From: Squalus acanthias
Lineage: Eukaryota
NCBI GenBank assembly: GCA_030390025.1
Contig: CM059432.1
Location: 64,916,001 to 64,980,000, forward strand
Length of the DNA stretch: 64,000 nt
Direction of reading: 5' to 3'
The position numbers and the translations under genes are program-made. Below the pieces are notes generated by a model. The model was not told where the DNA came from. It did no database searches and saw nothing but the letters and a program-made list of their open reading frames with translations. Positions 7,896-50,001 of the stretch are shown piece after piece. The first letter of the stretch is position 1; each line of letters opens with the position of its first letter.

Positions 7896-8013
7896 GGTGA
7901 AGCCACATCCATCCCACACAGCTGATCCTCTCAAATGACAAAAGATATGCCAGTTAGTGTGCAGGACCAGGAAACCACAGCAGTATTAGGTGTGCAACCA
8001 GCAATTGCAAGAC

Positions 8014-8620
8014 TGAAAGGGTTAAAAGAGCTAAAATATAAAGAGTGGTTATGAACAAGTTTAAAAGAGGGAAGTATGATGTAACATGGTCAAGACTACA
8101 CACTACAAATCACTAATTGAGTAAAATATTAGAAATAACCTTGGAGTCCCGGTTGCTATGGTGAAATCTTTCAAAGCGGTTTTAATTGGATTTACTTGAA
8201 TTTAACCTTGGAGTTGCCAGATTAATGTGCACACGAACTGCAAGAAGTTGCACCCGAGACCAACTATTTTTCACCCAAGACCAACTATTTTGCACCCGAA
8301 ACCAACTATTTTGCACCCAAAACCAACTATTGTGCACCCGAAACCACCTGGGGGATGCAAGAAATGTATATATGTAATGTCAATAATTGTGGGACAATAG
8401 CCACGACTTAGAACAGAAACTGTATATAAGGTAGAGGAGTTTTAACAATCGGGGAGCATTCGTCCCTGGATGAGTGACTCCCCTGTCGGCTTGTAATAAA
8501 GTTGATTTACTGAACGAACCTCCGGACTCCGAGCGATTGATTGGGAATAAGGCGGACGTCGACGCTTTATATCAGAGGGTTCATCTTGGGGAGAAGAAAC
8601 TCTCCCGGTTTACCCTTACA
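8014..8620 (+). repeat. 5' LTR (607 bp)
   Basis: TGAAAGGGTTAA...TTACCCTTACA terminal inverted repeat; TATATAA 8423-8429; AATAAA 8495-8500. Confidence 0.95.
8250..8346 (+). repeat. 21-bp tandem repeat in U3, 4 full units plus a partial
   Basis: Unit GCACCCGAGACCAACTATTTT. Confidence 0.95.
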
Positions 8621-8623
8621 ACT

Positions 8624-8641
8624 TGGCATGGTCGGCAGGAT
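8624..8641 (+). promoter_or_regulatory. Primer-binding site, tRNA-Ser type
   Basis: TGGCATGGTCGGCAGGAT 3 nt after the LTR; 16/18 match to the complement of the vertebrate tRNA-Ser 3' end as recalled (TGGCGTAGTCGGCAGGAT). Confidence 0.85.
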
Positions 8642-8963
8642 CTACCGGACGGGCTGAGTAGAGACATTGTCTCCTCGCATCGAAGCCCAAGGCCGGAGAT
8701 CCAACGAATCTGAGGCGGAGTCCGGATACGTGAGTAAAACAACTTAGGTGCGCGTTAGGACATAGTAAAAATGAAAATGTCTGAATAAGTTGAGAAGCTC
8801 GGGTTATATAGGATTGGATATGGGAAAGTCCAGTCAAGGCAGAGTTAAAACCGCGTGAGCAGGGAAAAGTCCCTGAGGTCCGGGGAAGTCCCGGAGGTAA
8901 CAAGAGGAGGAACTAGCAACTCCACCTCAAAAATGGCGAATAAAAATGACGCCTAAAGATCTA

Positions 8964-9846
8964 GGGGGAAAAATTCAGTTGGTTGTGCCTCCCGTTAGCG
9001 CCTTAAGAGGGCGCTTTTGAGGCGCAAAGCAACTAGCGCCCGGGTGCGGCGATGTTTGCGCCACTCACAAAATTAACTAGACATTTTGCGGTGGCGCTAA
9101 ACAATACCGCCACGATCTCCTGCGCCTGCAGATCGTGACGTCAGTCGAGTGCGCAACGCCCCGGTAGCACCCCAGAGTGGATATTGAGTGGCGCCCCCTG
9201 CCTTACCGCCTGCCGCTAGCAACGACAGGTTGAGGGGAGCGTTTTGCAGTCAGGAAGGGACTGGGGGAGCGCTATTTAAAGGCGACCGCTTCCTGCCTTT
9301 TTTTGTTGGCGACATTTTTGAACCACGCATTCTGAGAGAGAGAGAGAGAGACTTCTGGAGAGATTCAACACTGTGTGAAGGAGTTTTGGAAATGGAGCAG
9401 CACTTTGCATGTTCATTTTGATTTGCCCTACCTTGTATCGATTTAGAAGAGACTGTAGGGGCTGCACTCTGAGCTCTTTCCCTGGGCCTCTCCATTGTTC
9501 TTTCCAGCAGATTTGATGTACAGGCCGAGATTCAAGGCTGCAATGAGCAGGATGTGGATAGAAAGCAAGATCAACCCTTCCCTTTAAGAACTGGCCGGGG
9601 CCATTGTGTCTGTGTTCCATTGCTGACTGACATCACATGAGCTTCGCCAGCGCTCTGAGTTAGCGCCTCGCTCCTCGGCCTTTGCGCCTTAAGACAGATG
9701 TGTAGCACCTGATTTAGCGCTCCAATCACCTCCAGGGGCGATAAAAGTCAAGTTTGCAGTCGGAGGCGATAATTAGCGCCAGGCGCTAATCTTTGCACCC
9801 GGCCGATAATTGCGCCCCAAATGGGGCGATAGTGAATTTTTCCCCC
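8964..9846. mobile_element. Harbinger MITE (~890-bp family) copy 1, inserted at the start of the ERV gag region
   Basis: TIR GGGGGAAAAATTCA / TGAATTTTTCCCCC; near-identical to 27379..28271 and 50002..50894; TSD imperfect. Confidence 0.92.
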
Positions 9847-9847
9847 C

Positions 9848-11305
9848 ATAACTCCCGTACGAGTTTGTACGAGACAAATATGAAAAGGTTAAGGGGAAGA
9901 TGATTAAGAAAGGGTATGAGTCAGGAAACAAACCGAAATGGAGAAATGACTAGTGGATGGAACAAAAGGGCAGTAAAGGAGATGAGGCCATAGTTGTGTG
10001 TGTGGATAATGAACAGACTTATGCCCAGGGAAAAAACAAATGGAAGGTTAGGTGCAAGCAGACACAGAAAGACTTATCAAACAAACCGCTCTAGTAACAC
10101 AGTGTAGACAAGAGCAAGGGCAACAAAGGAAGCTAATAGAATAGTTAAGGGAAGGATTAAAACGAGCAAAGGAGGAAATAAAAAACTTAACGGAGGAAAA
10201 TGATGGTCGAAAACAGATGCTGGCATCTGCTTGCCAGTTACTCCAAAAACACAGAGAGAAAAAGAAAGTCAGTAAAAATGATGATGAGGAAAGTGAAGAG
10301 GAAGACATAGATGATGAACAAAAATGGGCAGTAAACCATAACCCAGATTTGTATCCACCGGGGTACAAGCCCATATACTCCGGTCTGGAGGGGTTAGAGT
10401 TAGGACCAGAGGAGAAAGCGGCAAAAATGGCCCCAATCACTGTAAAATATGTATCAGATGGGAAGGATGATAGGGGAAATGATAAACCCCGAAGGAGAAC
10501 TGAATGCCAGAAACCTTTCAGCCCGCTAGAAAAGCAAGCCATATTACAAGAACTTCCCCAATTAAAACCAGCAAATGGAAACCCCGAATTTTGGTCAAAG
10601 TTAGAAGGAATGATTGAGGTACATAATATGCATGAAAAGGATGTACATGCCCTGGTAAAAGCCCGATGCCCACGAAGTACATGGGAAGGATTAAGATTAG
10701 GAATTAAGGATGGAAGCTGGACAAAACCGAGTGACGATGACAGAGAAGATAAGATACGGGAATTCATTAACGAGATTAAGAAAGAACTTGGGGCAGGGCA
10801 GAGCAATTGGGGAACCATAATGAATGTGCAACAAGGAAAAGACGAGGTGGTAACAGACTATGCTGAGCGAAAATATAGTAGTTACCAACAATACTTGGGG
10901 ATCCCAGATCCCCGGCGGAACGATCCGGTGTTTTTAAAGATGTTAAAGTAAGGGATGAGCCCACAACATCAGGAGGTCCTGAAGCTCGGGATCTCGGTAG
11001 GTCAAAATTATGGACAAATAATGTCCTGGGCAGGGGAAATAGATGCCCGACGAATTTCGGATAGGGAAACTAAGGGAAAAACAAAGGCAGCGGCCCTGGA
11101 ATACATAGCAGCAATAGCAACCAACCAGGGAACAGGACAGGGAAAATGTTATGGGTGTGGCTCACCTCACCACCAGTGGAAAAATTGCCCTAGCAAAGGT
11201 ACAGGGGCCCGGACCAAAACAGGACAGCGAGACTTAATGACTTGCTATAACTGTCAGAAGCCCGGACACACCAAGAGCCAGTGCTGGGCAAAAGGGGGCC
11301 AGTGA
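9848..11305 (+). pseudogene. gag: Retroviral gag, disrupted by stops
   Basis: N-terminal coiled-coil-like stretch, MHR-like QGKDEVVTDYAER, two CX2CX4HX4C knuckles (CYGCGSPHHQWKNC, CYNCQKPGHTKSQC); in-frame stops at 10142 and 10949. Confidence 0.88.
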
Positions 11306-12023
11306 AGTAATACCCAGATGGGGAGTCCCACTCCAAATTGACTCTGATAATGGTACGCATTTTACTGGAAAAATAATGAAGGAAACTTGTAAGCTGTTAA
11401 ATGTAACACAAAAATACCACGTACCATATCATCCCCAGAGCTCGGGGATGGTAGAAAGAATGAATAGGACACTGAAAAACGCTCTGACAAAAGCCATCCA
11501 AGAAACAGGGAAGGGATGGTCGGAATTACTACCCAGCATATTAATGAGGCTGCGAGCCACCCCAGGACGCATGACCGGACTGACCCCTTATGAATTAATG
11601 ACAGGACGAGCTATGAGACTGCCAGAGGGTCTGGCAGGAGGGGTGGGAGAACCAGGACCAGTACAAGATAGATTAAGACGATATTTAGTGCAACTAAACC
11701 AGGAGGTACAAGCACTAAATACAGAAGTAAGGAACCAGCAACAGATTAAAAATCTAGAGAGACAAAATACTGGACTTAAACCAGAGGAGTTGCCCAAAAT
11801 AGGCCAACAGGTAATGACGCAAGTTATTGGAAGAAAGGGAATGGAACCTCGTTGGATGGGGCCATATACTGTATTAATGACAAGTGATATATGTGTTTGT
11901 CTACAGGAACCGACGGGCATGCGATGGAAGCACTGGACCCAGGTGAAACCATTTAACACTAAAGATCCCCATTCTACCCTCTCCTCGAGGGAAAAGAGCT
12001 CGGAATACGGCGGACTAAGATAA
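11304..12023 (+). pseudogene. pol: pol remnant: integrase core C-half and C-terminal domain only
   Basis: EVIPRWGVPLQIDSDNGTHF...YHPQSSGMVERMNRTLK...GLTPYELMTGR...PRWMGPY; no protease, RT or RNase H motifs between gag and this. Confidence 0.92.
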
Positions 12024-12030
12024 CCGTACC

Positions 12031-14471
12031 ATGAAGTTGCTGTGGATAATACTAACCATAGCCAGATGGCCAGGTAAGTCGGTACACCAGGGGGCACAGA
12101 TGACGTGGAGGAACCTTGCTGCATCCCCACAATGGTATTAGATCAAACGACAATGGGCTGGGGACCAGTTGGGGGTGTAGATAGCATGCGATGTTGTGGA
12201 TGGCCAGAAGGAGAGGAGTGCGTAACAATACAGGGAAAAGAGGGAGAAACGAGGTGTTATAACTTGGGACAAATGGGGAACAGACCACAGGCCAGGCTTA
12301 GAAGGGGCACGATAAACAGAGGGTGCACTAAATCTAAACCTGGTATGATTGTAGAAGGGAATTACATAACTACTAGCACCCAGCTTATAGATGGAAACCC
12401 CTATTACGGCCAATTTCCGGCGCCCAATCAAGAGTCCCCATATACGAAATGGGTTGAATGTGGTAAGGTTGTAACAATAAATACGATCAATGCATTCCCA
12501 GATGAGCAGGTATGCATCACGTGTCCAACCTCATACCCAAACCTCCTGAGTGTGGAGGAATCGAGAAATGGCACAGTCTGGATGACAGAGCCTGGAACTT
12601 GGATATTGAGTGAAGGTACAAAGGACAGGAAACGATGCGTGATCCTGAAAGGAAAAGTAATAACTAAATATGGATGTGCCAAGTCAATAACCGCGGACTA
12701 CACCAACTATAACATACCCACGGTCGAATGTACAGAAACCTTATTGAGGGTCCAATGGGGTGGACCACTGAAACTGACACCGACGCCCCCACCGGCTCAA
12801 CCCGCTATCATGACTTCCAATACACAGAAAGAAGAGACGAGCGAACCAACGATGTTACAATGCCCAATTATGACACCTGGACCCATGAATGGACTAATAT
12901 TATTTACCGAGGGAGAACAATTGTATGATAACATAAGACACAAAATTGTACCGGTACTGATGAACTTAACCACGTTACAATGGCCAGGATATTGTGAAAG
13001 GTTCACTAAAACTAGAGAATTGTATGCATATATGATAAAGAATGTAATTAACCAAGCTGCTGATGCGACAGGGGCCACTAGTTTCAGGGGACATTCTGCA
13101 TTCCACCAAAGGATTAAGAGGAGCTTAGGAACCGATGTATTTACGGGAATAAACACGGGGACATCATTCGTTAATGCCCTAGATATACAAGGAGTCCAAA
13201 GTAGTGTGGAACGAATACAAAGGGTAATACAACAGATTTTAGAGAAGGAAACTGGTTTAGTTCAACAAGGATCGAAGTTGGGAGAACATACAATAAGGAA
13301 ATTACTCGAAGGAGTTAAGGTTATAGAGGACCATGCTAGCATCATCAACAAACTAAACCATAGGGATGAGGAACAGGCAAAAGACGGGGTAGGGAGAGGC
13401 TTGTGCCATGCCTATGGCCAATGGATCACCGGACAGTTAAAACACAATCTGGCACAGATACAGCGAGGTGAGGTACCAGACTGGATTAACAGCACACAGC
13501 TCTATGGCCTGAGCCAGAATCCAGGCCCTCTGAGTGCTTGTACCCTCAAAGGGATGACCAGAGTATATCCAGTGATACAAAAATGTAAAGCAGAAGTGAC
13601 AGCAATGATAGGCATGGTACTCCTGATACCGGTGGTGGGACTAGACACGACTCCATACCCACAGTACCAGGTAGCAAACATAGGCATAGTGAGCGGTGGG
13701 ACATACCTCCAATACTATCCAATTGATACCTATGCCATCAGGAAGAATGGTACTATGAGAGGAGTTTCCCTAAACGGATGCCATGGGAAAGGTACGCTTA
13801 CGATATGCCCACATCCAGCAGGAGAAGGTCCTAAGGATGAGTGCAGCTATAATAAGACAGAGGGGTGTATGTTGGAATTATCACATGTTGATCACCATCA
13901 CACCCGCTCGGGATATAGAGGCAAAGGGGAGTATTGTATAGCCACCACAGAGACTGAGTACCAATATAGTAACCTTGTATGTGTAATCACAATGCCTAAC
14001 TTCTGCTTTACGCCAAAGATCCCCGTGACAATTGGACACACCAGATTGGTGTATGTACATTCAAGGGAGGAGATAAAACTAACTGTGCTAGATAGTTTAA
14101 GGGACGAGTTGATCAAGTATGAAGATCCGGCAGGGGCCTCAATACCCCACCTGCAAGAGGATCTGCAAGAAATGAAAGAGGGTTTAAGTAAAATGGTGAA
14201 ACAATACGTAGTGTTGCAAAGGAACCTTGGGGAACTAGAAAGGGACATAGAAGTAGAACTACAGGAAGTCTCATGGTATTAGAAGCTGTAGGATTGGGGG
14301 ATGAATGTCAACATACACCCATGGATCCGCATTATTTCTCACATACTAGTTATAGTACAATTGGTTATGGCGATAGGATTGGGAATAGCAGCATGCGCCG
14401 CCTGTAAAAAACAAAGAGAACAAGAAAGGAAGAGGGAAATGGAAGAAATGTACATGACATTGATAAAGTAA
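12031..14471 (+). pseudogene. env: env, class I fusion glycoprotein of F-like type; 725-codon open frame 12105..14282, anchor separated by two TAG stops
   Basis: Signal-like MKLLWIILTIA at 12031 (other frame); furin site RIKR 13110-13121 followed by a fusion-peptide-like segment and heptads; Cys-rich region; HR2; in-frame hydrophobic IISHILVIVQLVMAIGLGIAACAAC and tail to TAA 14469-14471. Confidence 0.88.
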
Positions 14472-14798
14472 TAATGCATATTGTCCGGTGGTAATTGTTG
14501 CAGAAACATCCTGGGCAGATTCCCATCGAGCAGACGGAATATTACTATGAACAGGAGAAGGCTTGGGAGAAAGACCTGCTTAACGGATGTATAGTACTAA
14601 CAACATTAATGTTCATAACCTATGTAATTGGGTGGATAATATGTCGATGAAAAGGATGTAGGGGGCATAGAAATCAGGATAATATGATTATATAAATTGG
14701 GTGACCCAATGGGTTGGATTTGATCACCACCCCGGCCGGACACCATAATAGGAGAAATAATCAGGTTGGTCAATGATTAAAAGAGATTAATCAGGACC

Positions 14799-14871
14799 AA
14801 AAGGGGGGACTGAGAGGGTTAAAAGAGCTAAAATATAAAGCGTGGTTATGAACAAGTTTAAAAGGGGGGAC
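14799..14871 (+). promoter_or_regulatory. Polypurine tract, duplicated together with the first ~49 bp of U3
   Basis: AAAAGGGGGGAC at 14799-14810 and 14860-14871, each followed by TGA(G/A)AGGGTTAAA. Confidence 0.9.
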
Positions 14872-15521
14872 TGAAAGGGTTAAACGAGCTAAAATATAAA
14901 AAGAGTGGTTATGAACAAGTTTAAAAGAGGGAAGTATGATGCAACGTTGTCAAGACTACACACTACAAATCACTAATTGAGTAAAATATTAGAAATAACC
15001 TTGTAGTCCCAGTTGCTATAGTGAAATCTTACAAAGCAGTTTTAATTGGATTTACTTGAATGTAACCTTGGAGTTGCCAGATTAATGTGCACACGAACTG
15101 CAAGAAGTTGCACCCGAGACCAACTATTTTGCACCCGAGACCAACTATTTTACACCCGAGACCAACTATTTTGCACCCGAGACCAACTATTTTGCACCCG
15201 AGACCAACTATTTTGCACCCGAGACCAACTATTTTGCACCCGAAACCACCTGGGGTTGCAAGAAATGTATATATGTAATGTAAATAATTGTGGGACAATA
15301 GCTACGACTTAGAACAGAAACTGTATATAAGGTAGAGGAGTTTTAACGATCGGGGAGCATTCGTCCCTGGATGAGTGACTCCCCTGTCGGCTTGTAATAA
15401 AGTTGATTTACTGAACGAACCTCCGGACTCCGAGTGATTGATTGGGGATAAGGAGAAAGTCGACCCATTATATCAGAGGGTCCATCTCAGGGAGAAGAAG
15501 CTCTCCTGGTTTACCCTTACA
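14872..15521 (+). repeat. 3' LTR (650 bp)
   Basis: Direct repeat of 8014..8620; TATATAA 15324-15330; AATAAA 15396-15401. Confidence 0.95.
15110..15248 (+). repeat. 21-bp tandem repeat in 3' LTR U3, 6 full units plus a partial
   Basis: Same unit as 8250..8346, more homogeneous. Confidence 0.95.
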
Positions 15522-15904
15522 AAGACCATCTCATGATCCAACACAAAGAAGTTAGAGGGTCAACTTCATCTCAAGAAGCACCCACAGAGAACCAGCAGCC
15601 AGTCAGTAGACTTATTCCAAGCACTGGGGAAGCACCAGAAGGAGCACTAGATTGGACTGTCGAAGACACACACCTTATAGTGTCACTAGGGGAAATCACC
15701 AAGGTAAAAATCATTAGTGCCACATGTACTGCTCATTCATTGGACAATAAAAGGGTTGCACTTCATTTTTACACCGTATCGCGGCAGTGACTCTGGCGGT
15801 AAGTGGGCCAATTTCTAGGCCAAAGCATCTTAACTGCCGCCAAAGTATTGGATATTGAATTGCATTGTTAAATACCCATAATCACAGACATCGATTAGAC
15901 AAAG

Positions 15905-17102
15905 CCTCTTTTCCTCTCCAAAGTCCTTGAACATGTTTTCATCGCCCAAGTCTGTGCCCAACTTCCCTGCAACTCCATGTATGAACCTCTCCCATCAGGT
16001 TTCTGCCCCTGCCACAGCACTGACATGGCCCCAATCAAAGTCATAAATGACATCCTTTGTTACTGTATCCCTCCTCATACTTCTCAATCTGTCTGCAGCC
16101 TTTAACAAGGTTGACCACATCATCCTCCTCCAACACCGCTCCTCCATTGTCCATTTGAGTAAGGCTGCCCTCGCTTGGTTCCACTCTTACCTATCCAATC
16201 GTAGCTAGAGAATCTCTTGCAATGGCTTCTCTTCCCACTCCCGCACCATTACTTCTGGAGTCCCCCAAGGATCTATCCTTGGCCCCCTCCTATTTCTCAT
16301 CTACATGCTGCCACTCGGTGACGTACCCAAAAACACATCAGATTTCACATGTACGCTGACGACATCCAGCTCTACCTCTCTCTATCTTTGCCTTTACTGC
16401 CTCTGCATCGTCAAACTGCTTGTCCGACATCTAGTCATGGATGAGCCGCAATTTCCTCCAATGAAACATTGGGAAGACTGAAGCCATTGTCTTCGGTCCC
16501 TGCCAAAAAAATCTGCTCCCTAGCCATTGATTCCATCACCCTCCCTGGCCACTGTCTCGGGGTGAATCAGACTGTTCACAACCTCGGCGTCCTATTTGAC
16601 CCTGAGCTGAGCTTCCGAACACATATCCTTTCCATCACAAAGAATGTCTAATTCCACCTCTGTAATATTGCCCATCTCCGTCCCTGTCTCAGCCCATCTG
16701 CTGCTCAAGCCCTCATCCATGCTTTTGTTACATCCATGCTAGACTATTCCAATGCTCTTCTGGCTGTCCTCCACTCTTCCACCCTTCATAAACTTAAACA
16801 CATCCAAAGCTCTGCTGCCCATATCCTAACTTGCAGCAAATCCCATTCACCCATCACCCCTGTGCTCCTGTGCTTGCTGACCTACATTGGCTCGTGGTCC
16901 AACAACTTTTATTTTAAAATTTTAAAATTCTCATCCTCTTGTTCAAATCCCTCTAAGGCCTCGCTCCTCCCTATCTCTGTAACTTCCTCCAGCCCTACAA
17001 TCCTCCGAGAACTCTGCATTCCTCCAACTCAGGCCTCTTGTGCATCTCCTACATCCTTTGCCCCACCACTGGCGGCTGTGCCTTCAGCCATCTAGCCCCT
17101 AC
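15905..17102 (+). mobile_element. L2-clade LINE, degraded RT fragment
   Basis: [54 protein letters not shown]-rich sense strand. Confidence 0.85.
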
Positions 17103-19632: not shown

Positions 19633-20769
19633 TCAAGGGAACTGGAGTCTGATGATGTGCTCAACGACAGCCCGTCCAGAACGAAGATTTGCAGGCTGTC
19701 TCCTCCCTCCCTCCTCCTCCTCTTCCTCCTCCTCCCCCTCTTCTTCCTCATCCTCCTCCTCCTGAGGTAGGCATGGAACCTGTGGTGGCAAGGGCTGCAC
19801 CCTCATGATGGCCAAGTTGTGGAGGATGCAGCAGACCACCACGAATTGGAACACCCACTCTGGTGAGTACTGGAGAGCTCCAGGTTAAAGAAGCACACCT
19901 GTTGCTTGAGCACCCCAATGGTCTGCTCGATGACATTCCTCGTGGCAGCATGGCTCTCATTATATGATTGCTGGCCACGAGTGTTGAGGTTGCGGAGGGT
20001 TGTCATCAGCCAGATTGCCCTTCTCGCTGAGCAGCCACCCTCGGGTTTGATGTGGTGGCTGGAAGATTGCTGGCACAGCGGACTGGCGCAGGATGAAAGT
20101 ATCATGACTTCTGCCAGGATACTGGGCTTTCACCATCATGATGTGCTGGGCGTGGTCACACACCAACTGCACATTAAATGATTGGCACACTTTGCAGTTA
20201 CGGTACATCTCATCATTGAAATGCGGCACCTGAAAAGCCAGATGTATGCAGTCGATGGCGCCCTGCACCATGTGGAAGCCCGATATCCTGGCAAAGCCAC
20301 GTGCGCGCTCCTCCTGCTTCTCTCTGATTAGAGTGAAGATAATGTAGTCCCTTCGCCTAGTGTACAGAGACTCTGTGACCTCCCAGCTGCAGCGATGGAC
20401 AGTGAACTGCAAGATGTTTGCTATGTCACCTGTTCCAGCCTGGAAGGATCTGCTGGCAACAAAATCCAGGCCCACTATCACCTTGAGGGCTGCTGGCAGA
20501 GCCCTGCCCTGAGGCTGCAGGTCTGGGTCCACGGGGTGGCAGAGTTCTGTGACCACCACCTTGGTGCAATGAAGCTGCCAAACACACTGCTCCTGGCTTA
20601 GGTGTAGGTAGCAGAAGTGTTCCCTGAAAATCCTAGATGGGCAAGGCCTCCTGCTGAGAGCCCTCCTCCCCCTCCTCCTCCTCCCTCTGCGAGCAGTTTG
20701 TCTTTGCTGCCTCTGCTCCATCTCTCTGACATGCTGTAGTGCAAGGGGGACTGCAAGTAGAGCCCCCAT
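19633..20769 (-). pseudogene. HARBI1-like DDE transposase, frameshifted
   Basis: VQGAIDCIH, NVQLVCDH, YPGRSHDTFIL, RNVIEQTIGVLKQ, CCILHNLA, acidic tail. Confidence 0.9.
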
Positions 20770-21790
20770 GACTGGGAGTCAGTGGTGTACTCAGAGGCCT
20801 TCAAGTAGCAGCCAACACCTTCCCAGCGTCCAGCAGCACTCACTGCACACTTTAACAACTTTATAAATGTCTTCCACCAAGACAGTATTTACATAAACTC
20901 TACAAGAACCAGTACAAGAGAAATAATCAACTTACCTGCAAGTTGGATGTATCCCTTTAAAAGCGCTGGTGGCAGGTCCCTCATGCAGCTGAACGCACGT
21001 TCAGGTGTGCGTGTTTAGGAGAGGGCGTTGAATGGAGCAGCGAGGTGGAATTTGGCAGGTCGTGCGTCAAATCAACGTTATACGTTGACTGACGTCACGA
21101 TCTGCCTACCCTGCATACTGCTGGCACACGCACATTTCACCTATGCTATCACCCTCACCAAGATGGCGAACAGCACGGGCCGCACTGGAAGTGAGCGGAA
21201 GCAAGGCGACCGACTTTTCTTTCTCCAAACCGGCCTTAACCGCCAGTGCTAAGGTATTGAATTTCATGGTCCTTATTTAATAGCTGGCCTAGAAATTGGA
21301 GGTGTTAGCGCTGGCTGTTAAGGCCTGTTTTGGCAAAAAAAATGGTGGCTGCCTCATTTCCACCATTTGCCAGCGGGTCCCACGGCAGCCGCCATTTTCA
21401 GCTGAGCAGCAGCGCTACCGATGTCCACGCTCGCTGGGGATATGTAGATTATGCAGATCGCGACGTCAGTGAGTGTGCACTGCTCACCTGAAGCCCGATC
21501 TGCCATTTTCGAGTTTGCAGCTTCACTTACTGGCTTGTGTTAATTGCGACCAGCTGACCAAGTGTTCACAAGCAGGAAGGAGCCTCCAGCAGCAGTATTT
21601 AAAGGGTTCATCAGCAACAACTTGCAGCTGACATGTTTGTTCAGTTTGACTGGCTCTGTGTAACTTTCTGCAACTCTTGCAGCTTTATTAACTTCTTACA
21701 AGTTCCTAAGGTGACCAGGAGTGTTGGCGCAAATGGAGAACGCCTTCAATCTTATTTAAAGGCTTCTGCTCAGAACACTTGCTCACAGTC

Positions 21791-26950: not shown

Positions 26951-29173
26951 TGCAGGCTTCGCAAAATCCCCCAAAAACTCGAACAGAACCCTAAAGGGAG
27001 TGATTTTTGGACCTTTCATACAAACTTGGGATGATGGGACCTAAGTGAAGTGATTTGAGGTAAAAACCTCAGTTTTGGACATTTTAAAGATCAGGGAAGA
27101 AAAACCCTGAGGAAAATGACTTTTGAATCTTACTGTTGGGAAAGACACCTTTCACAGATACAGACAGGCTGTGGAGGGGCGTGGCCAGGCAGTGGACAGC
27201 TTTGGGTATGGGGGCCCAATCAAGCTGTCTGGGAATTGTTTACACTGCATTCCTACCAAGGAAGAAGAGACAAACCCAAAGCCTCACACACACATAGAAA
27301 TATGAATAATCCAAGATCCCATTTTGAAATTCCAAGCCCAAACAGGATACCAGAAGCCTGAAATCAATAAAACATTTAGGGGTAGAAATTAGGTCGCGCC
27401 CCATTTGGGGCGCAAATATCGTCTGGACGCAAATATTAGCGCCTGGCGCTAATTATCGGCACTGACTGGAAACTTCACTTTTACCGCCCCGGGAGGTGAG
27501 TGGAGCGCTAAAGCAGGCGCTGCACACCTGTCTTAAGGCGCAAAGGCCGAGGAGTGAGGCGCTAACTCAGAGCGCTGGCGAAGCTCATGTAATGTCAGTC
27601 AGCAATGGAACACACACACAATGGCACGGGCCAGTTCTTAAAGGGGATGGTTAATCTTGCTTTCCATCCACATCCTGTTCATTGCAGCCTTGAATCTCGG
27701 CCTGGAGAGACTTGCACATCAAATGTGCTGGAAAGAACAATGGAGAGTACCAGGCTAAGAGCTCAGAGTGCAGCTCCCACAGTCTCTGCTAAATCGATAC
27801 AAGGAATGGCAAACCAAAATGAACCTGCAAAGTGCTGCTCAGTACCCAAAACTCCTTCACACAACGTTGAATCTCTCCAGAAGTCTCTCCCTCTCTCTCT
27901 CAGAATGCGTAGTTCAAAAATGCCACTAACAATAAAAGACAGGAAGAGGCCCCCTTTAAATAGCGCCCCCCCCAGCCCCACAGCGATTGATAGCGTTCCA
28001 GTCTTCTGGTCGTTGGATGCGCCAGGCGGTAAGGCAGGGGGCGCCACTCAATTTCCGCTCCGGGGCGCCACAAGGGCGTTGCACCATGGAATGACGTCAC
28101 AACCTGCGCGCGCAGGTGGTCGCAGCGGTAAGTTTTAGCACCGCCGCACAATGTCAAGTTAAGTTCCCGAGCGGCGCAAACATCGCTGCGCCCGGGCGTT
28201 AGCGGCTTTGCGCCCCATTAGCGCCCTCTTAAGGCGCTAACGGGAGGCGCAACCAACTGAATTTTTACCCCTTAGCACCCCGATTACTTCATCTAAAACC
28301 AATCAACCAGGTATCCACAGGGACAGATTTATAAGCCCGCCGAAAACCTAGGACAATAGGGACAAGATTTGATGCGCAGATAAAGGCCCTGCCTAAATGG
28401 GCAATATCGGAAGCCATCAGGACATGTTTAACACCAAGTTAAAGCCATCAAAACTGACAAGCCCGCCAAAACTAAGACAATGGAATATACAGGGCTCATT
28501 TGAAATCTAAAGGAAACCGATTTAGTAAGCGGTTTTGGGCGCTGAAAGGACAAAGGGGCTGAACAGTATAATTGGGGGCCTAATCCCCCAAGACAGTCTC
28601 TCTCTCTCTCTCTGGACTCTCTGACAACGCTCGCACAGCTCTCTCTCAGCTCTGTTCCAGCAAGACACCACAAGCCATGAGCAGGAGGAGGAAAGAAGGC
28701 CAGCAACTTCACAAGCAGACCAACACGCAAGAAGAAACCAGAGCGACTGCCTCAGTGACCATCAGACACCTCGCGGCAACAAGGGCCTTACGAATCCTTT
28801 TACTCAAAAGACTCTAAACCCTAACACTCAACTGTCAAGGATTCGTTTGGTGAGCATTATCCCTGATCTACTGAAACCAAAACCTAGCTAGATAGTGGGA
28901 TTTTTGGGAGGGATAAGTTTTTTTTTGTATATTGTCTATCTCCCTCGCCTGTACCGTATGTTTCCCAACCTGTGTTTAAGTATTAAGTGTGTTTTAAGTT
29001 TGTTACCTTTTTCTTTAAATAAAGTCAAAATTCTTTCAACAGATCCTGTTGTCTACTGCATCTTTGTTCACAACCCCTAAATAAGTCCAAAGTCTAGAAC
29101 CAGGGAAGTGGGAGCGATTCGAACCGCTCACTGAGTCAGAGGTGAAGGCTGACCGCACATAGCACCCCCTACA
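26951..29173 (+). mobile_element. Solo LTR (~1.33 kb once the nested MITE is removed)
   Basis: TGCAGG...CCTACA termini; 4-bp TSD GTTG (26947-26950, 29174-29177); TATAA 28567; AATAAA 29018; the sister CR1 at ~62935 has a single GTTG. Confidence 0.85.
27379..28271. mobile_element. Harbinger MITE (~890-bp family) copy 2, opposite orientation
   Basis: TIR GGGGTAGAAATT / AATTTTTACCCC; TTA TSD. Confidence 0.93.
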
Positions 29174-31140
29174 GTTGTCATCTTCCAAAATTCTATAGAT
29201 TCTGGAATGGTTCCTGCAGATTGGAGGATAGCAAATGTAACCCTGCGATTTAAGAAAGGAGGGAGAGAGAAAACAGGGAACTACAGACCTGTTAGCCTCA
29301 CATCAATAGTTGGGAAAATGCTGGAATCTATTATGAAGGATGCAATAACTGGGCACTTAGAAACTAATAGTAAGATTGGGCAGAGTCAACATGGATTTAT
29401 GAAAGGGAAATCCTGTTTGACAAACCTATTGGAGTTCTTTGAGGATGTAACTAGTGGAGTAGACAAAGGGGAACCGGTAGATGTGGTGTATCTGGATTTT
29501 CAGAAGGCCTTCGATAAGGTCCCACACAAGAGGTTGGTGAACAAAATTAGGGCACATGGAATTGAGGGTAATATACTAGCATGGATTGAGAATTGGTTAA
29601 CAGACAGAAAACAAAGAGTAGGGACAAACGGGTCTTTTTCAGGATGGCAGGCTGTGACTAGTGGGGTACCACAAGGATCGGTGCTTGGGCCCCAGCTATT
29701 CACAATCTATATCAATGATTTGGATGAGGGGACTAAATGTAACATTTCCAAATTTGCTGATGATACAAAGCTAGGTGGCAGTGTCAGTTGTGAAGAGGAT
29801 GTGAAGAGGCTTCAGGGGGATCTCGACAGGCTCAGGTGAGTGGGCGAGAACATGGCAGATGGAATATAACGTGGATAAATCTGAAGTTATCCACTTTGGT
29901 AGAAAAAACAGAAAGGCAGAGTATTTCCTAAATGGTGAAAGATTGGGGAATGCAGATGCTCAAAGGGACCTGGGTGTCCTTGTACATGAGTCACTGAAAG
30001 TGAATGTGCAGGTGCAACAAGCCATTAGGAAGGCAAATGGTATGCTGGCCTTCATTACAAGAGGATTTGAGTACAGGAGTAAAGAAGTCTTACTCCAATT
30101 ATATAGGGTCTTGGTGAGACCACACCTGGAGTACTGTGTACAATTTTGATCTCCTTACCTAAGGAATGATATACTTGCCATAGAGGGAGTGCAACGAAGG
30201 TTCACGAGATTGATTCCTGGGATGGCGGGACTGCCGTATGTGAAGAGATTGAGTAAACTCGGCCTGTATTCTCTTGAATTCAGAAGAATGGGAGGGGATC
30301 TCATTGAAGCATACAAAATTATTACAGGACTTGATGGGGTGGATGTTGGGAGAATGTTTCCCTTGGCTGGGGAGTCTAGAACCAGGGGCCACAGCCTCAG
30401 GATAAAGGGTAGGCCATTCAGGACTGAGATGAGAAGAAATTTCTTCACACAGAGGGTGGTGAATCTTTGGAATTCTCTACCCCAGAGGGCTGTGGAGGCT
30501 CAGTCATTGGGTATATTCAAAACAGAAGTCGATAGATTTCTGACTAGTAAGGGCATCAAGGGATATGGCGATAGGGCCGGTGAATGGAGTTGAGGCAGAA
30601 GATCAGCCATGATCTCATTGAATGGCGGAGCAGGCTCGAAGGGCCAAATAGCCTACTCCTGCTCCTATTTCTTATGTTCTTATGTTCTTATCACTGATCC
30701 TTTCACAGAAAGTCATCTTCCTCCACCAAATCTCTTGAGTGCAAGAGGAATACCTCAGATATTTGGTTGCTGCAAATAAAATAGTAGCTGGCAGCAATAC
30801 TGTGGTTGGAAAAGCATAAGGGAATAAAAGGGGAAAAAAATCAAAAAGAACTAAACACAAAGTAATACCATAGCAAAAATGTAGCAAAAAGAATCCAAAA
30901 AAGTGGTCCTAAACAAACTTCCAACTCCAACAGTAAACAACACAACTCTCCTTTAAGAATCCAATTCTCAAAAACCAGAAAGAGCCTTCTCTCCGGCATC
31001 TATTTTACATGGGCGTGCAAAGCTCTCACAAATTCCTGGTAAAAAAGCGTAAGAAATCACAGTTACAACTGCAACATTAACTTATCGGCTTGGTGACGCA
31101 GCGTTCTCCATTCAGATTTCTTCTGTCATCTGGACTTATG

Positions 31141-32130: not shown

Positions 32131-34881
32131 ATGGACTTAAAAAAGTAGATAATGGTGTAGCAAAACTATGAACTGGGAAAGAGAACATTTTTTCTTCCCT
32201 TCTTTAAAATACCTTCTCCATTCTTTATTCATCAGTTTCAGTTTATAGCGATGGGCAATAAATGCTGCCCTTGTCAGCAATGGCCACATCCCATGAATGA
32301 ATATATAAAAAAAAGCTTGTGAACTTTATTTCCATTTTATGGTTTATTTCTCTCTTCATCCTTATGATAATTGTACAATTAGGGTCTGTACAAGCCTATG
32401 GGTGAATTTAAATATAAGCCAAATTATTATATTTTAAAATATCTCTCAGAGGTGACAGTGCTACCACTGATTCAAGTTGAGATCATCATGAGGAAGACCA
32501 CAAATCAGATGGTACCATAGAGATGCTGGAAATGCAGAGTGATATAGAAGTAGAAGAAGCGAGGGAGAGAACATAAGACCAGAGTAAATTGAAAGCTGCT
32601 TGGAAGATCTCATTCTAGCTTCCAATAGCGAGAAGCGAAGTCAAGTAGTCAAATACCTTTGCATTTATTCCCCTATGCTAGGTCCTAGTCAAGTACACAT
32701 TCTTAATGTCTAAGCATTTTTTTCTCTACAGTTTGTTTCTTCCATCTCATGGTCTTGAAGGGCTTCAGTAACAACTGCTCACCTCAGCAACCAATTTACT
32801 TAGGCGTGATGCAGATTTGCAATCCCTCAAGTATCTCTCCAGTCTCCCTGAGAGATGCACAAGCTGGAACCCAGAACAAAAGTAGTTGAACTGCTGCCAG
32901 GCCTCCATAATGGCAGTCCAAGACAGCCATCAGCAGATGCATGATACCTCCCTGGACACAACTCATCCTCTGACTTTCTTCACCCTGCAAAGAAGTGCCT
33001 GCCTTTTGTTCAGTACCTCGTTATGGTAGGACAACTAAGGTTAGGAACTCAATCACACAGGAGACTGAACCAGCATTTTTCACTCCAATGGTACTGTGTG
33101 CTGATGCTACTTTGCACTGTGCCACCAACAGCACCCATAACACAGCTATTTATTAAGAAAAAAAGCAAGTTACAATATATGCATCATAAAAAATGAATTG
33201 GAAGAATATTTACAATGGTGGATGTGGGCTCTCGTGGGCTTGGGCTTGTTTGTGGTGTGCATTATTGTCCGAATCAATTCAGAGCTCCATGCAAAGTGTA
33301 AATTTGGGCAGTCATGTGAAATTAATGTTATATTCAGCTGCACATCCTCAAGGTAAATTTAAAGAAGAACAGAAATGCTATCACAATGGTTCTGTGTAAT
33401 TGAAAGCTTCACAATTCCTACCTGTAGGCCTTTCTTTTGTAGTTCTTTTCTTAGCATGTGCACCAGATGTATATCAACAGGGTCATAAATCAAGTATACA
33501 GTGTCTGACTGAAAGCGAACTTTCCGTGCTCGAATATGCCAGCTCTCCTAGAGACGGATAATTAATTTTAAACAAAATGTATTTTAAAGTGCTGTCACAT
33601 AGTCACATACAGAATAATGTTCACAAGTGAAATGACAATGGCCTTACCCTAAAATAGCGATAAAAAGAAAAAGAATGCAAATGCCAAAAACAAGAACTGA
33701 ACTGTAATAATACATAACAGGTCTGTCCGCATCAGAAAAGATGATAACATTTTTGGTAAAGACTTCATTGGAGCTTTATTCTAAAAGATCAAGGAATTCT
33801 ACTTAAAAGATTGCTTCAAACAATCTTTTCACTCCACAGAATTCAAATACCACTATTCATTACCCTGTCACCCATCGATTCCTTTATTAATAGGAAAGAT
33901 AGGGAAGGAAAAAAAAGGACGGGATGTGGCTGTATTGATGAAATAAACTATTATAGCACTGGAGAGCGATGATGTATGTGAGGTGTCAAAGACAGGAGCT
34001 ATTACGCTACTGGGATTATACTATAGACCACCAAATAGTGAGAAGGAGATAGAGAAGCAAATTTGCAGGAAAATTACAGGAAGCTGCAAGAACTACAGAG
34101 TAGTGATAATAGGGGACTACAATGATTCTAATATAGACTGGGATAGAAAAAGTGTAAAGGGCAAAGAGGGGGAGAAATTCCTGAAATGTGTACAAGAGAA
34201 CTTTCTTGATCAGTGTGTTTCCAGCCCAATGAGGAAGGAAACAGTGCTGGATCTAGTTTTGGGGAATGAAGTGAGGAAAGGGGAGCATGTTTCAGTGGAG
34301 AAGCATTTGGGGAACAGTGACCATAATATCATCAGGTTTAGAATAGTTATGGAAAAGGACAAGGGACAATCAAGCGTTAAAATACTTAACTGGCGGAGGG
34401 CTAACTGCAGTGAGTTGAACAGGGATCTGGCCCAGGTGGATTGTAATCAAAAATTGGTAGGCAGAACAGTAATTGAACAATGGGAGGCTTTCAAAGAGGA
34501 GATGGTTCAGGTAAAGAATGGACACATTCCCACAAGGGGAAAAGGAATGGCATCCAAAGCTAGAGCTCCCTGGATGACAAAAGATATAGGCCAGAATTTT
34601 CTGTACCTGGGCGGATCCGGTGCTGGCAGCCACCATGGCAAGTCACAACCCCGTTGCTGGCTCCATCCCGCTCCACAGAATGACTTTCTAATAATGGAAC
34701 CTATTAAGCCTGCCCTGTGCATTACCCGGCCCAATTAAATGGTGCGGGTCTGGTGATGTCATCGATGACGTGCTTTCAGCTGGGATATTTAAAGGGGCCA
34801 TGACCACATTGCATTTGAAGGTTCATCTAGGAGTGTGCAGGCAGCACACTGGAGGATTTCATTACTCCAAACAGTTGGCAA

Positions 34882-39433: not shown

Positions 39434-41236
39434 GGGCTGTATTTTGCGACCCCTACTGGTGCGTACAAGATGTGCACGCGCCTGTAGGGGCCGTGCAAGT
39501 TCCGCGTTTAGGCATGCGAAGTGCATGCGCTGAAACCCGGCACTTGCGATCTGTCAAGAATCTTCTGCCCAATAAGGTAAGGTATAATATATTTAATTAA
39601 ATGCCATTTTAATTAATTGTATATATGTAATGTTCTTTTTTTATTTATTTCATGTGGTAGTGTATATTTTAAGTCATCCCCATTCATACTTATGACAGAA
39701 ATCATGCTTGACAAATTTGCTCGAATTCTTTGAGGACGTTACAAACAGGGTGGATAAAGGAGAACCAGTGGATGTGGTGTATTTGGACTTCCAAAAGGCA
39801 TTTGATAAGGTGCCACACAAAAGATTACTGCACAAGATAAAAAATCCCGGGATTGGGGGTAATATACTGGCATGGGTGGAAGATTGGCTATCTAACAGAA
39901 AACAGAGAGTTGGGATAAATGGTTCATTCTCGCGTTGGCAGTCAGTAACTAGTGGTGTTCCGCAAGGGTCAGTGCTGGGACCCCAACTCTTTACAATCTA
40001 TATTAACGATTTGGAGGAGGGGACCAAGTGCAACGTATCCAAGTTTGCTGACGATACAAAGATGGGAGGAAAAGCAATGAGTGAGGAGGACATAAAAAAC
40101 CTGCAAAAGGACATAGACAGGCTAAGTGAGTGGGCGGAAATTTGGCAGATGGAATATAATGTTGGAAAGTGTGAGGTTATGCACTTTGGCAGAAAAAATC
40201 AAAGAGCAAGTTATTATCTAAATGGAAAGAAACTGCAAAGTGCTACAGTACAAAGGGATCTGGGGGTCCTGGTGCATGAAACACAGAAGGTTAGTATGCA
40301 GGTACAGCAAGTGATCAGGAAGGCCAATGGAATCTTGGCTTTTATTGCAAGGGGGATGGAGTATAAAAGCAGGGAAGTCTTGCTTCAGTTATACAAGGTA
40401 CTGGTGAGGCCACACCTGGAATACTGCGTGCAGTTTTGGTTTCCATATTTAAGAAAAGATATACTTGCTCTTGAGGCAGTTCAGAGAAGGTTCACTCGGT
40501 TGATTCCGGAGATGAGGGGGTTGACTTATGAGGAAAGGTTGAGTAGGTTGGGCCTCTACTCATTGGAATTCAGAAGAATGAGAGGCGATCTTATCGAAAC
40601 ATATAAGATTGTGAGGGGGCTTGATCGGGTGGAGGCGGGGAGGATGTTTCCACTGATGGGTGAGACTAGAACTAGGGGGCATAATCTTAGAATAAGGGGC
40701 TGCCGTTTCAAAACTGAGATGAGGAGAAACTTCTTCACTCAGAGGGTAGTAAATCTATGGAATTTGCTACCTCAGAGAGCTGTGGAAGCTGCGACATTAA
40801 ATAAATTTAAAACGGAGATAGACAGTTTCCTAGCTGATAAGGGAATTAAGGGTTATGGGGAGCGGGCAGGGAAGTGGACGTGAGTCTAGGTTCGGATCAG
40901 CCATGATCCTATTGAATGGCGGAGCAGGCCCGAGGGGCCATATGGCCTACTCCTGCTCCTACTTCTTATGTTCTTATGTTCTAGTTCCGTACATATGGAA
41001 TCCCCATAAGTATAAAGGGGATTCCCTTCTTTCATTGGTTGGGCTGGCCCACGTGATCCCAGGGGTGCTTGCAAACCACATGTGCCCCTGGGGTACGTGG
41101 GTCTCTAAGCATTTCTACCAGGAGAGGCCCAGGATCGCAAGCCTCCATATCTCCCGGACCACCAGGTAAATGCGTAGATTTTTTGATGATCGGAGGCATC
41201 CGCCCGCGGGAAGTCTCCAATCGCAAATTCAGCCCC
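39434..41236. mobile_element. Harbinger-type MITE (same family as 1288..1915) interrupted by a CR1
   Basis: TIR GGGCTGTATTTTGCGA / TCGCAAATTCAGCCCC; AAT TSD. Confidence 0.85.
39695..40982 (+). mobile_element. Young 5'-truncated CR1; uninterrupted 391-codon RT/C-terminal frame 39708..40883
   Basis: [28 protein letters not shown], no stops; (TTCTTATG)n tail. Confidence 0.95.
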
Positions 41237-46881: not shown

Positions 46882-47940
46882 CTAGAAGCGGCTTGTTATC
46901 AGCCGTTGACGGACGGCCCTTGCAGTTTCAACATTGTGCCTTTGGTGCTGCTGCTGATCATCCTCCTCCTCTTCCTCCTCCTCCTCCGGTGGTGCTCCAA
47001 AGCCTGGTGGCATTGGCTGGGTCCTGAGGATTGCAAGGTTATGAAGAATGCAGCAAACAACTATGAAGAGGGAGACTCGCTCAGGAGAGTACTGCAGGGC
47101 TCCTCCTGAGTGGTCCAGACAGCGGAACCGTTGCTTGAGCACGCCGATCGTCTGCTCAATTATGTTCCTGGTGGCAATATGGCTCTCATTGTACCGCAGC
47201 TCGGCAGGGGTGTTGGGGTTATGGAGCAGTTTCATCAGCCAGGTGCAGAGTGGATAACCCTTGTCCCTGAGGAGCCAACCACTTGGCTGATGCGGTGCCT
47301 GGAAAAGTTCTGGCACATCAGTCTGGCGCAGGATGAAAGCATCGTGGCTGCTGCCAGGATAGTGGGCATTGATGGCGAGTATCAGTTGGTCACAGACCAA
47401 CTGCACATTTAAGGAGTGGAACCCCTTGCGGTTTCGGAAAACCTCTGCATTCTCATGTGGTGCCCGCAATGCCACATGCATGCAGTCAATGGCACCCTGC
47501 ACCATGGGGAAGCCCACTATCCTCGCAAAGCCCAATGCGCGTTCATGCTGTTTGGCCCGGGTCATCGGGAAAGAGATGTACTGGCGTCTCCTTTTATACA
47601 GGGCATTTGTCACCTCCCGGGTACAGCAACGGACCGCGAACTGGGAGATATTGGCGATGTCCCCAGTAGCTGCTTGAAAGGAGCTGGTGGCATAAAAATT
47701 CAGAGCCACTGTGACCTTCACTGCCACCGACAGAGACGTCCTGGTCCTCAGTTGAGGCTGCAGATCTGGCTGCAGCAGGTGGCAGAGCTCAGTGACCACC
47801 TCCTTGCTGAAGCGCAGCCTGTGGAAACATTGCTCCTCAGACAAATTAATGTAGGAGAATTGTTCCCGGAATACCCTGGGAGGGTAAGGTCTCCTGTGCA
47901 GAGGCTTGTTGGCCCTCCTCCCTCTGGCCATGATTGACAC
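46882..47940 (-). CDS. HARBI1-like DDE transposase, uninterrupted 352-codon frame (N-terminus appears shortened; function uncertain)
   Basis: GAIDCMHV, HDAFIL, RDKGYP, RNIIEQTIGVLKQRFRCLD, CCILHNL. Confidence 0.75.
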   Translation of the reverse strand: MSIMARGRRANKPLHRRPYPPRVFREQFSYINLSEEQCFHRLRFSKEVVTELCHLLQPDLQPQLRTRTSLSVAVKVTVALNFYATSSFQAATGDIANISQFAVRCCTREVTNALYKRRRQYISFPMTRAKQHERALGFARIVGFPMVQGAIDCMHVALRAPHENAEVFRNRKGFHSLNVQLVCDQLILAINAHYPGSSHDAFILRQTDVPELFQAPHQPSGWLLRDKGYPLCTWLMKLLHNPNTPAELRYNESHIATRNIIEQTIGVLKQRFRCLDHSGGALQYSPERVSLFIVVCCILHNLAILRTQPMPPGFGAPPEEEEEEEEDDQQQHQRHNVETARAVRQRLITSRF

Positions 47941-50001
47941 TCTCTCTCTGCATCTGATGCCTCCAAATCTGCAGGTGCAGGACGACGCCCCGAATCAGTG
48001 CAGCCCCCAAAGTCTCTTGACAATCGAAGCAATGAAGGTCAAATCCAAAAGAACCTGCAAAGTGATGCTCAGTAGCCAAAACTACTTCACACAGCATTGA
48101 CTCTCTGCAGAAGGCTCTCTCTCTCTTCTCAGAATCTCTCTCTGTCAGAATGAGTGGTGCAAAAATGTCTCCCACAAAAAAAGGCAGGAAGAGGGCTTTA
48201 AATAGCACTCCCCCAGCCCCTTGCCGACTGCAAAACGTTCCACTCTCCCTGTCGTTGCTTGCGGCAGGCGGAAAGGAAGGGGGCGCCATTCAATATCTGG
48301 TCCGGGGCACCACCAGGGCATTGCACGCGCGACTGACGTCACAATCTGCGGGCGCAGGAGATCGTGCCAGAAGTTTAGCACCGCCGCAAAAACTCTGGTC
48401 AATTTCACGAGCGGCGCAAATATCGCCGCACCCGGGCGCTAGTTGCTTTGTGCCCCATCAGCGCCCTCTTAGGGTGCTAACGGGAGGCGCAAAGCAACTG
48501 AATTTTTCCCCCTAGATCTTTTAGGTAACTAAGCCAACGTTGGCAAATTAAACATAAAATAGCAAGGAACCAAAAGAAGCAGTATGTGCTAAATGGTATA
48601 GTTAACCAGGTTGCTGTCCATAAAATATTAAAGACAAATAAGAACATAAGAACATAGAAATAGGAGCAGGAGTAGGCCATATGGCCCCTCGAGCCTGCTC
48701 CACCATTCAATAAGATCATGGCTGATCTTCGACCTCAACTCCACTTTCCCGCTCGATCTCCATATCCCTTGATTCCTCCAGAGTCCAAAAATCTATCTAT
48801 CTCAGCCTTAATATACTCAAAGACTGAGCATTCACAGCCCTTTAGGGTAGAGAATGCCAAAGATTCACAATTCTCTGAGTGAAGAAATTCCTCTTCATCT
48901 CAATCTTAAATGGTCGACCCCTTATCCTGAGACTATGCCCCCTAATTCTAGACTCTCCAGCCAGTGGAATCAACCTCTCAACATCTACCCTTTCAATCCT
49001 CCTCAGAATATTATATGTTTCAATGAGATCACCTCTCATTCTTCTAAACTCCAGAGAGTATAGGCCCAATCTACACAATCTCTCCTCATAGGACAACCCT
49101 CTCATCACAGGGTTCAATCTAGTGAACCTTTGTCGTTCCGCCTCCAAGGCAAGTATGTTCTTCCTCAGGTAAGGAGACCAAAACTGTGCACAGTACTCCA
49201 GGTGTGGTCTCACCAAAGCCCTGTACAATTGTAGCAAGACTTCCTTACTCTTGTACTCCAACCCCCTTGCAATAAAGACCAACATGCCATTTGCCTTCCT
49301 AATTGCTTGCTGTACCTGCATGCTAACTTTCTGTGTTTCCTGTACGAGGACACCAAAATCTCTCGGAACACCAACATTTAAAGGTTTCGCACCATTTAAA
49401 AATATTGGGGGCAAAATCCCCCTCGTTTGCGCCTCCAGTGGGAGGTGCTAGCGGGGCGCAAATGGCTTTTCGCCCTCCCGAGGTGATAGCCGCACCTCCC
49501 GCAAATTTCCGCGGTAGGTTAGCAGCAGCCCTACCTGGCATCGCCCTGATCTTCTGCGCCCGGAGATCATGACGTCATTTCCGGGTACAGCGCCCCGGTA
49601 GGGCCTCGGGAGATAAATTCCCCCTGGCGCCCCACACTGCAGCCAGGCTGCAGTGGCGCAAACCTTTCAATGATCTCAGTAGATCGGGTTCGCGAACTGT
49701 GAGGCCGGCTGCTTGTGGGGTGCCATTTAAAGGCGCGAGGGCCGGCCAACATAAAAAAAAAATCGGCGAATTAAAAGAAATTTTTTTTATGAGCACCAGA
49801 CACGGGCTGAGTGCCGCGATCGGTCAGCCTGCCACTCAGCCAAAAAAAATGCAGAGCTTGCAGCGGGGAGCCCTTCCCTTTAACTGAGGGATGAGCCCCT
49901 GCAATGTGGCAGTGCCACGTGTGGCCACTTGTGGCGCTGCTGAGCACATCATCCCGGATCGGGACATTCCCCGCCTCTTGCGCTCCAAGAGGCAAGTCAT
50001 A

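Follow-up and report, generated by a model that had tools for sequence, protein, structure and literature searches.

The 64,000-nucleotide stretch of DNA analysed here (contig CM059432.1, positions 64,916,001 to 64,980,000; hereafter the window) holds at positions 8014..15521 an endogenous retrovirus (ERV) whose env gene is the main subject of this report. Very probably the element is a provirus, now dead and with an internal deletion, from a multi-copy ERV family, likely of a shark; the family belongs to a basal branch outside retroviral classes I and II, and its envelope is predicted to be of the F type ('class Ib'). The span, first proposed in an earlier note on this DNA, is borne out by a pair of long terminal repeats (LTRs) of the form TG..CA with the pentamer AAGAC at both flanks. 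The empty site was recovered too: a contig of sequencing run X12 (its organism coded differently from that of the best holders) joins position 8008 to 15522. LTRs, duplication, and empty site together identify a real provirus with exact boundaries (Table 1); 5-bp target duplications were also found at four siblings of the provirus.

The window copy is dead, with stops in both gag and env and a deletion of about 3 kb in pol. Gag is interrupted twice, the signal-peptide region of env is frameshifted (12031-12078), and env holds two in-frame TAG codons. Compared with 20 fetched loci, the loss of ~3.0 kb at ~11300 took the end of gag, the TAG readthrough site, the protease, the reverse transcriptase (RT), the tether, the RNase H, and the N-terminal half of the integrase (IN). 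The window copy being without RT, all RT and RNase H results below are those of sibling copies. What is left agrees with the earlier description: two CCHC knuckles in Gag (Pfam zf-CCHC, E 2.5e-6); a retroviral-type integrase (Pfam rve and MLVIN_C) of which only the C-terminal half is present, 96% identical to a sibling IN; and a very long env subunit after RIKR (449 codons from that site to the TAA at 14469-14471) with neither a CX6CC nor an LQNR-type immunosuppressive motif. The short frame behind env recurs in four siblings as an ATG-started open reading frame (ORF) of 53-66 codons with a hydrophobic helix; no selection signal was found in it. No further long ORF was seen in the window copy, no search being aimed at the smc gene that lokiretroviruses optionally carry.

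The two LTRs of the window copy diverge by a Kimura two-parameter distance of 0.062 (607 columns), and those of the four siblings with both LTRs recovered by 0.036-0.051. Since a divergence of 6% fits poorly with the ~4% (19 differences in 488 bases) between the flanks at the empty site, the LTRs of the window copy may overstate its age, and no conversion to years is made. The primer-binding site is exact in 4 of 19 sibling loci. The genome contains 77 matches to its tRNA-Ser(AGA) 3'-end pattern; all three loci inspected are tRNA-Ser genes.

Table 1. Features of the provirus, with positions in the window.
Feature	Position	Strand	Remarks
Left target-site duplication AAGAC	8009..8013	+	right copy 15522-15526
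5' LTR, TG..CA	8014..8620	+	holds a 21-bp tandem array
Primer-binding site, tRNA-Ser(AGA) type	8624..8641	+	2 mismatches in window copy
Non-autonomous terminal inverted repeat (TIR) element	8964..9849	.	unrelated to provirus, inserted in leader; ~14-bp TIRs, TA-like site
Leader end and gag	9850..11299	+	capsid region; CCHC knuckles 11147 and 11243; stops 10142 and 10949; 5' start not fixed
Deletion junction	11298..11304	+	~3.0 kb gone; by comparison with sibling copies
Integrase, C-terminal half	11304..12023	+	Pfam rve, MLVIN_C; IN tree
env, whole	12031..14471	+	frameshifted signal peptide to TAA 14469-14471
env variable N-terminal domain	~12078-12780	+	followed by Pro/Thr hinge
env F2-like segment	~12860-13121	+	RIKR 13110-13121
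env F1-like subunit	13122-14468	+	TAG stops 14280 and 14289; transmembrane segment ~14331-14402; short tail
Short frame with hydrophobic segment, 3' of env	14489..14710	+	possible accessory exon
Polypurine tract	14799..14871	+	with 61-nt tandem duplication of the tract and LTR start
3' LTR, TG..CA	14872..15521	+	

The env core was modelled with AlphaFold2 as a monomer from alignment A2, which joins the core of the window copy with its 13 first homologues, 30 of 46 new profile matches, and one cluster member; short or chimeric profile matches were left out. When the model (pLDDT 73, pTM 0.56) was compared with the PDB by Foldseek, all rows listed were fusion (F) proteins of paramyxo- and pneumoviruses, with a best E-value of 4.5e-11 and TM-scores of 0.27-0.44. 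VIA-align returned Z-scores up to 13.2, and several F chains aligned over 275-286 residues at 4.4-5 Å. The match to F chains starts at residue 15 of the model, ahead of the cleavage site, and ends at 410-470. Because it begins before the cleavage site, the protein is read here as a signal peptide, an N-terminal domain, a Pro-Thr hinge, an F2-like segment, RIKR, and an F1-like subunit; both subunits take part in the core of the monomer model, as in an F-type fusogen. The paramyxo/pneumovirus-F layout claimed in the earlier note thus holds at the level of the predicted fold, and the env core is predicted to be a 'class Ib' fusion protein of the paramyxo/pneumovirus F fold, as known from measles-type viruses and RSV. 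The 50 rows listed from BFVD include glycoproteins of lispiviruses, baculoviruses, and paramyxoviruses, and also Envs of retroviruses: walleye epidermal hyperplasia virus 1 (WEHV-1) at rank 8 (E 2.2e-11), walleye dermal sarcoma virus (WDSV) at rank 29 (4e-7), and feline foamy virus at rank 42. Foamy Env is not among the PDB fold rows listed, which does not exclude it, and the best PDB sequence match of the env profile is a foamy Env (E 5.5e-4).

Narrower searches returned little. Env had no match in the Pfam search or in the single-sequence PDB search, and the shark-only profile A1 gave F matches at E ~1 only, with no significant match to the Env of lokiretroviruses, foamy viruses, WDSV, or snakehead retrovirus (SnRV). 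The N-terminal domain found no usable match in Pfam or the ESM Atlas. It differs in a second ERV family of the same genome and in Mustelus, and we infer that it is a swappable, putatively receptor-binding part. Ig-like domains apparently occupy this variable slot in P0071, P0089, P0080, and L021 (by source name for P0071, by a weak V-set match for P0089, and by eye for the others).

The links of env to other retroviral envelopes are visible with the broader profile A2 only. Run against 218 reference ORFs, with 400 shuffled ORFs as control (maximum 2.0 bits), A2 scored 51.5 and 47.9 bits with lokiretrovirus Env, 4-22 with foamy Env, 16.4 and 15.2 in two colinear matches with WDSV Env, and 10.4 with SnRV Env; the remaining Envs reached at most 7.5 bits, only near the transmembrane segment. 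Profile-profile alignment of A2 (hhalign) extended over 352 columns with lokiretroviruses (97.6%), 356 with WDSV (95.6%), 288 with SnRV (93.2%), and 138 with foamy viruses (80.8%); gamma and beta Envs stood at 0.4%. Without A2 as a bridge, the four sets of references do not align with one another. By identity they are about equally far from the window env: 16-18% for lokiretroviruses, 16% for WDSV, 18% for SnRV, and 16-17% for foamy viruses. The env tree has no resolution at depth, the position of lokiretroviruses included, and phmmer with the window env alone found WDSV best, at E 0.048. An F-like env does not diagnose a lokiretrovirus, because as judged from these comparisons it appears common to the foamy, WDSV/WEHV, and SnRV Envs at similar distance. 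The F-type env likely extends into the Orthoretrovirinae, and some ordinary fish retroviruses likely use the F-type fusion fold.

For the placement of pol, reference retroviruses were fetched as loci and identified against entries in the supplement of Wang and Han: SnRV (L021), WDSV (L063), Xen-1, gamma, class II, and foamy. PMC12193657 gives SnRV a length of 10,688 nt, the same as that of L021. Three loki-type elements served as references, and one of their Envs matches PF00523 at E 0.002; L045-L047, found in metagenome contigs that are probably host DNA, are nearly complete proviruses of the loki type. Four RT trees of 32-62 hand-thinned rows agree with one another. With an outgroup (L081) that only its 26% identity and its position in the tree mark as Gypsy-like, the lokiretrovirus RT is sister to that of all other retroviruses (91/88), and the family lies inside the latter, outside both the class I+II clade (95/96; 100/99) and the clade of foamy viruses (100/100; mammalian foamy references only). 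There it groups with ERV proteins of Mustelus, Heterodontus, and Pimephales (a minnow). In lying outside class I+II, foamy viruses, and lokiretroviruses, the RT agrees with the SnRV clade (Huo / class III grade). Env has no gamma-type transmembrane subunit with immunosuppressive domain and CX6CC. The family is placed, on sequence comparison, as a basal, SnRV-grade lineage among the non-class-I/II retroviruses. Pfam RT_RNaseH_2 and RNase_H were found in siblings. Scored pairwise rather than in a tree, the RNase H reaches 72-98 bits with epsilon, 82-83 with gamma, 73 with SnRV, 46-47 with lokiretroviruses, and 26-35 with foamy viruses. With a single RT as query, neither phages nor viral contigs yielded a match.

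The alternative that survives best is a narrower form of the preferred reading, in which the family falls strictly within the SnRV clade, as the elephant-shark CmiERV lineage I does; we hold this to be possible, on balance doubtful. SnRV gives the best RT-core match (40% identity, 219 bits; lokiretroviruses 164-169), shares the in-frame gag-pol separated by a TAG and the CCHC motif in Gag, and has a colinear Env with the cleavage site in register. An IN grouping with SnRV is not rejected by the approximately unbiased (AU) test (p 0.053), and SnRV-like ERVs are reported in Callorhinchus milii (PMC4422223). However, the AU test rejects family plus SnRV for RT (p 0.013; wider group p 0.0175), no tree joins the two, and gamma/epsilon references outscore SnRV in the tether and RNase H. 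The knuckles are two in the family and one in SnRV; the Env has ~810 aa and a short tail, whereas that of SnRV has ~1130 codons and a long tail, and the family is without a clear long 3' ORF.

A chimera, with the gag-pol of a basal retrovirus and an env captured from a lokiretrovirus, is unlikely. It would account for lokiretrovirus Env scoring 2-5 times the bits of foamy, WDSV, or SnRV Env, and ERVs of anamniotes commonly exchange env (10.1101/2021.11.23.469661). Yet the window env is no closer in identity to lokiretroviruses than to the other three, the env tree leaves them open, and the cysteines of the C-terminal part match WDSV, not lokiretroviruses. The extra N-terminal domain is also present in SnRV and WDSV, whereas lokiretrovirus Env starts at the F2-like segment.

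That the provirus is itself a lokiretrovirus, the first from a cartilaginous fish, is very improbable; the earlier note had proposed a loki-like lineage. In favour of this reading stand the F-like Env with an RXKR site, the top profile match of that Env, the dual RNase H (a feature of lokiretroviruses as well; PMC7947760), and the best score of the window IN half. The tether and second RNase H are not diagnostic, because they are common to all retroviruses, and the RNase H is not of the loki/foamy type (group I). The AU test rejects family plus lokiretroviruses for RT (p 1e-6, 0.0025, and 0.020) and an exclusive IN clade with them (p 0.00024), although both lie in one IN polytomy, CGIN1 itself being outside that tree. 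The RT motif is LPQGFHNSP, against CPFGY.NSP.EF in the lokiretrovirus rows, whose motif has 0 matches in the genome; the two knuckles contrast with none in the single lokiretrovirus Gag checked, and the tRNA-Ser primer site is a further difference. In line with the earlier note, which did not count cartilaginous fish among the reported hosts, Wang and Han found lokiretroviruses in 0 of 6 chondrichthyan genomes (PMC7947760), and the same source scored C. punctatum negative although that species carries the env family. The provirus is not a host-range extension of lokiretroviruses.

Foamy Gag lacks CCHC knuckles, and foamy pol lies in a separate frame. Least probable of all is a foamy-like ERV of cartilaginous fish, to which the foamy Env match of the profile and the prototype foamy virus integrase (the best PDB match of IN) might point, but the foamy RTs form a clade of their own, the tether and RNase H match them poorly, Gag has knuckles with gag-pol in frame, the env signal peptide is short, and the Envs align over only 138 columns; fish foamy-like ERVs were compared by eye only.

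Several observations weigh against the preferred reading of a basal, non-class-I/II family with an F-type env. The TM-scores to F are just 0.3-0.47, the first AlphaFold2 model of env had a pLDDT of 34, and the ESM Atlas assignments of env that speak for the fold (Baculo_F 0.95, Fusion_gly 0.93) carry a recognition value under its reliability mark. Lokiretrovirus Env is the best profile match of the env family, and the window IN half also scores best with lokiretroviruses (137 bits vs 131 for gamma). The deep placement is a polytomy; the trees are without ERV-L, ERV-S, Ovex1, ERV4, CmiERV, published Huo ERVs, and fish foamy-like ERVs, and represent lokiretroviruses by 2-3 metagenome-derived copies. 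In addition the family recombines, and its RT is taken from siblings. The selection analysis below gives no significant result for the F core by itself (19 of 47 shared variants at third positions, p 0.19), and the pN/pS form of the test is less clean, with a similar trend in non-coding controls.

The family is large. A 601-bp env probe has at least 40 DNA matches including the window (all 40 scored, from 199 candidates), which apart from the window are 93-99% identical, and an env protein probe has at least 150 (all 150 scored, window included), among them a second family at 53-56% that carries a related pol. This second ERV family (L079-L085) is ~50% identical in the env core and ~45-65% in pol, with a different env N-terminus. 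In the four siblings with the window type of gag, pol follows gag in the same frame, with the TAG between them. Among non-CpG variants that at least two of the 20 copies have in common, third codon positions account for 42 of 91 in env (p 0.0075), 22 of 33 in IN, 26 of 44 in RT-RNase H, and 53 of 84 in RNase H-IN, while singleton variants and three non-coding controls show no third-position excess. Because purifying selection is seen among the shared variants of both env and pol, reinfection likely accounts for at least part of the family's spread; moderate evidence suggests that env was in use during that spread. None of the sequencing runs is recorded as RNA, and family contigs in two runs guessed to be RNA were uninformative on expression.

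Some siblings are rearranged. In nine of 19 (L002, L003, L004, L005, L008, L011, L012, L017, L018) a common segment of ~900 nt replaces gag and protease; it matched none of the Gag or Pol queries tried, and these copies appear to be a replicated gag-less derivative retaining env. Part of the RT of L001, L003, and L005 shares 84-89% identity with the second family (L079, L084), which marks these copies as inter-family recombinants.

The host is likely a shark, as the nearest named relatives of env and pol are all from sharks. All 12 named among the 13 first env homologues belong to Mustelus, Chiloscyllium, Pristiophorus, or Heterodontus (39-49% identity), and the nearest Pol cluster contains a Mustelus protein. 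The env profile search gave 51 matches; among the 10 looked up, six are of sharks and three of frogs. The frog homologues (P0095 cluster, P0087, P0100/P0124) come from Mantella, Pelodytes, and Xenopus tropicalis and are annotated as uncharacterised proteins, the Mantella cluster (P0095) having 16 members, mostly of 677 aa. In the predicted proteins P0078, P0094, P0097, P0099, and P0103, pieces of env are joined to domains of host proteins (Niban, F-box, caspase, Calx-beta, cadherin); these fusions are probably gene-model artefacts.

Elsewhere in the window, the TIR element of the leader, which has a very high copy number, shows GGGG-type ends, an inverted copy at 27379-28272, and very high depth in four sequencing runs, and it lies in or beside siblings L001, L009, L010, and L017. 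The remainder of the window is occupied by candidate LINE fragments, which we take to encode LINE-like RT/endonuclease, at 15900-17100, 29153-29836, 33947-34735, and 39696-40880, and by repeated, presumably Harbinger-like ORFs at 19963-20778 and 46885-47994.

The parent virus primed reverse transcription with tRNA-Ser, as the primer-binding sequence shows, and may have made Gag-Pol by readthrough of the in-frame TAG as in SnRV; its integration left the 5-bp duplications observed. Cleavage of Env at RIKR would have yielded two pieces: an N-terminal one, with the swappable putative receptor-binding domain and an F2-like strand and helix that remain part of the fusion core, and an F1-like subunit that, from its predicted fold, would refold into a postfusion hairpin. 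In the window copy, the ~3-kb deletion in pol, the stops, and the TIR element came later.

Among known systems, the WDSV/WEHV-1 group resembles the family in its aligned Env, its Foldseek matches, and a similar RNase H, but the family RT is outside class I, no cyclin-type accessory genes were seen, and the family Env is shorter. With foamy Env and paramyxo/pneumovirus F the family shares the predicted fold and an N-terminal subunit that is part of the fusion core (PMC11468914); it differs by an identity of only 10-17%, a non-foamy provirus as carrier, and no leader-peptide membrane anchor. The same paper assigns the Env of orthoretroviruses and F to different classes. In other sources, epsilon Env is called neither gamma- nor beta-type (10.1101/2021.11.23.469661), modelling of the epsilon surface subunit is reported as unsuccessful (10.1101/2021.11.05.467493), WDSV is scored without an F-like match (Viro3D supplement), and SnRV-like or class III ERVs are common in cartilaginous fish (PMC4422223, PMC11089739). 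No statement of an F-like epsilon or SnRV Env was found in the literature searched, as far as its text was available (including PMC12583693, PMC6001957, PMC4299795, PMC13709493, PMC11521997, 2024.03.17.585361, and 2023.10.26.564294), which is weak evidence of novelty, as Calcraft et al. 2024, preprint supplements, and subscription papers fell outside the search.

As a locus this is an ordinary dead ERV; its value lies in the env family. There is in our view an even chance that retroviruses had the F-type (class Ib) fusogen as their ancestral envelope, kept in lokiretroviruses, foamy viruses, SnRV, the walleye epsilonretroviruses, and the shark/frog/fish lineage described here, with gamma/beta Env a later replacement. 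If so, the shark-frog env family would be the bridge that reveals this and gives the WDSV and SnRV Envs, which have long gone unclassified, a fold. Were these two Envs of the F type, an F-like env would no longer be a marker of lokiretroviruses, and the origin of retroviral env would become testable with structures of existing fish viruses.

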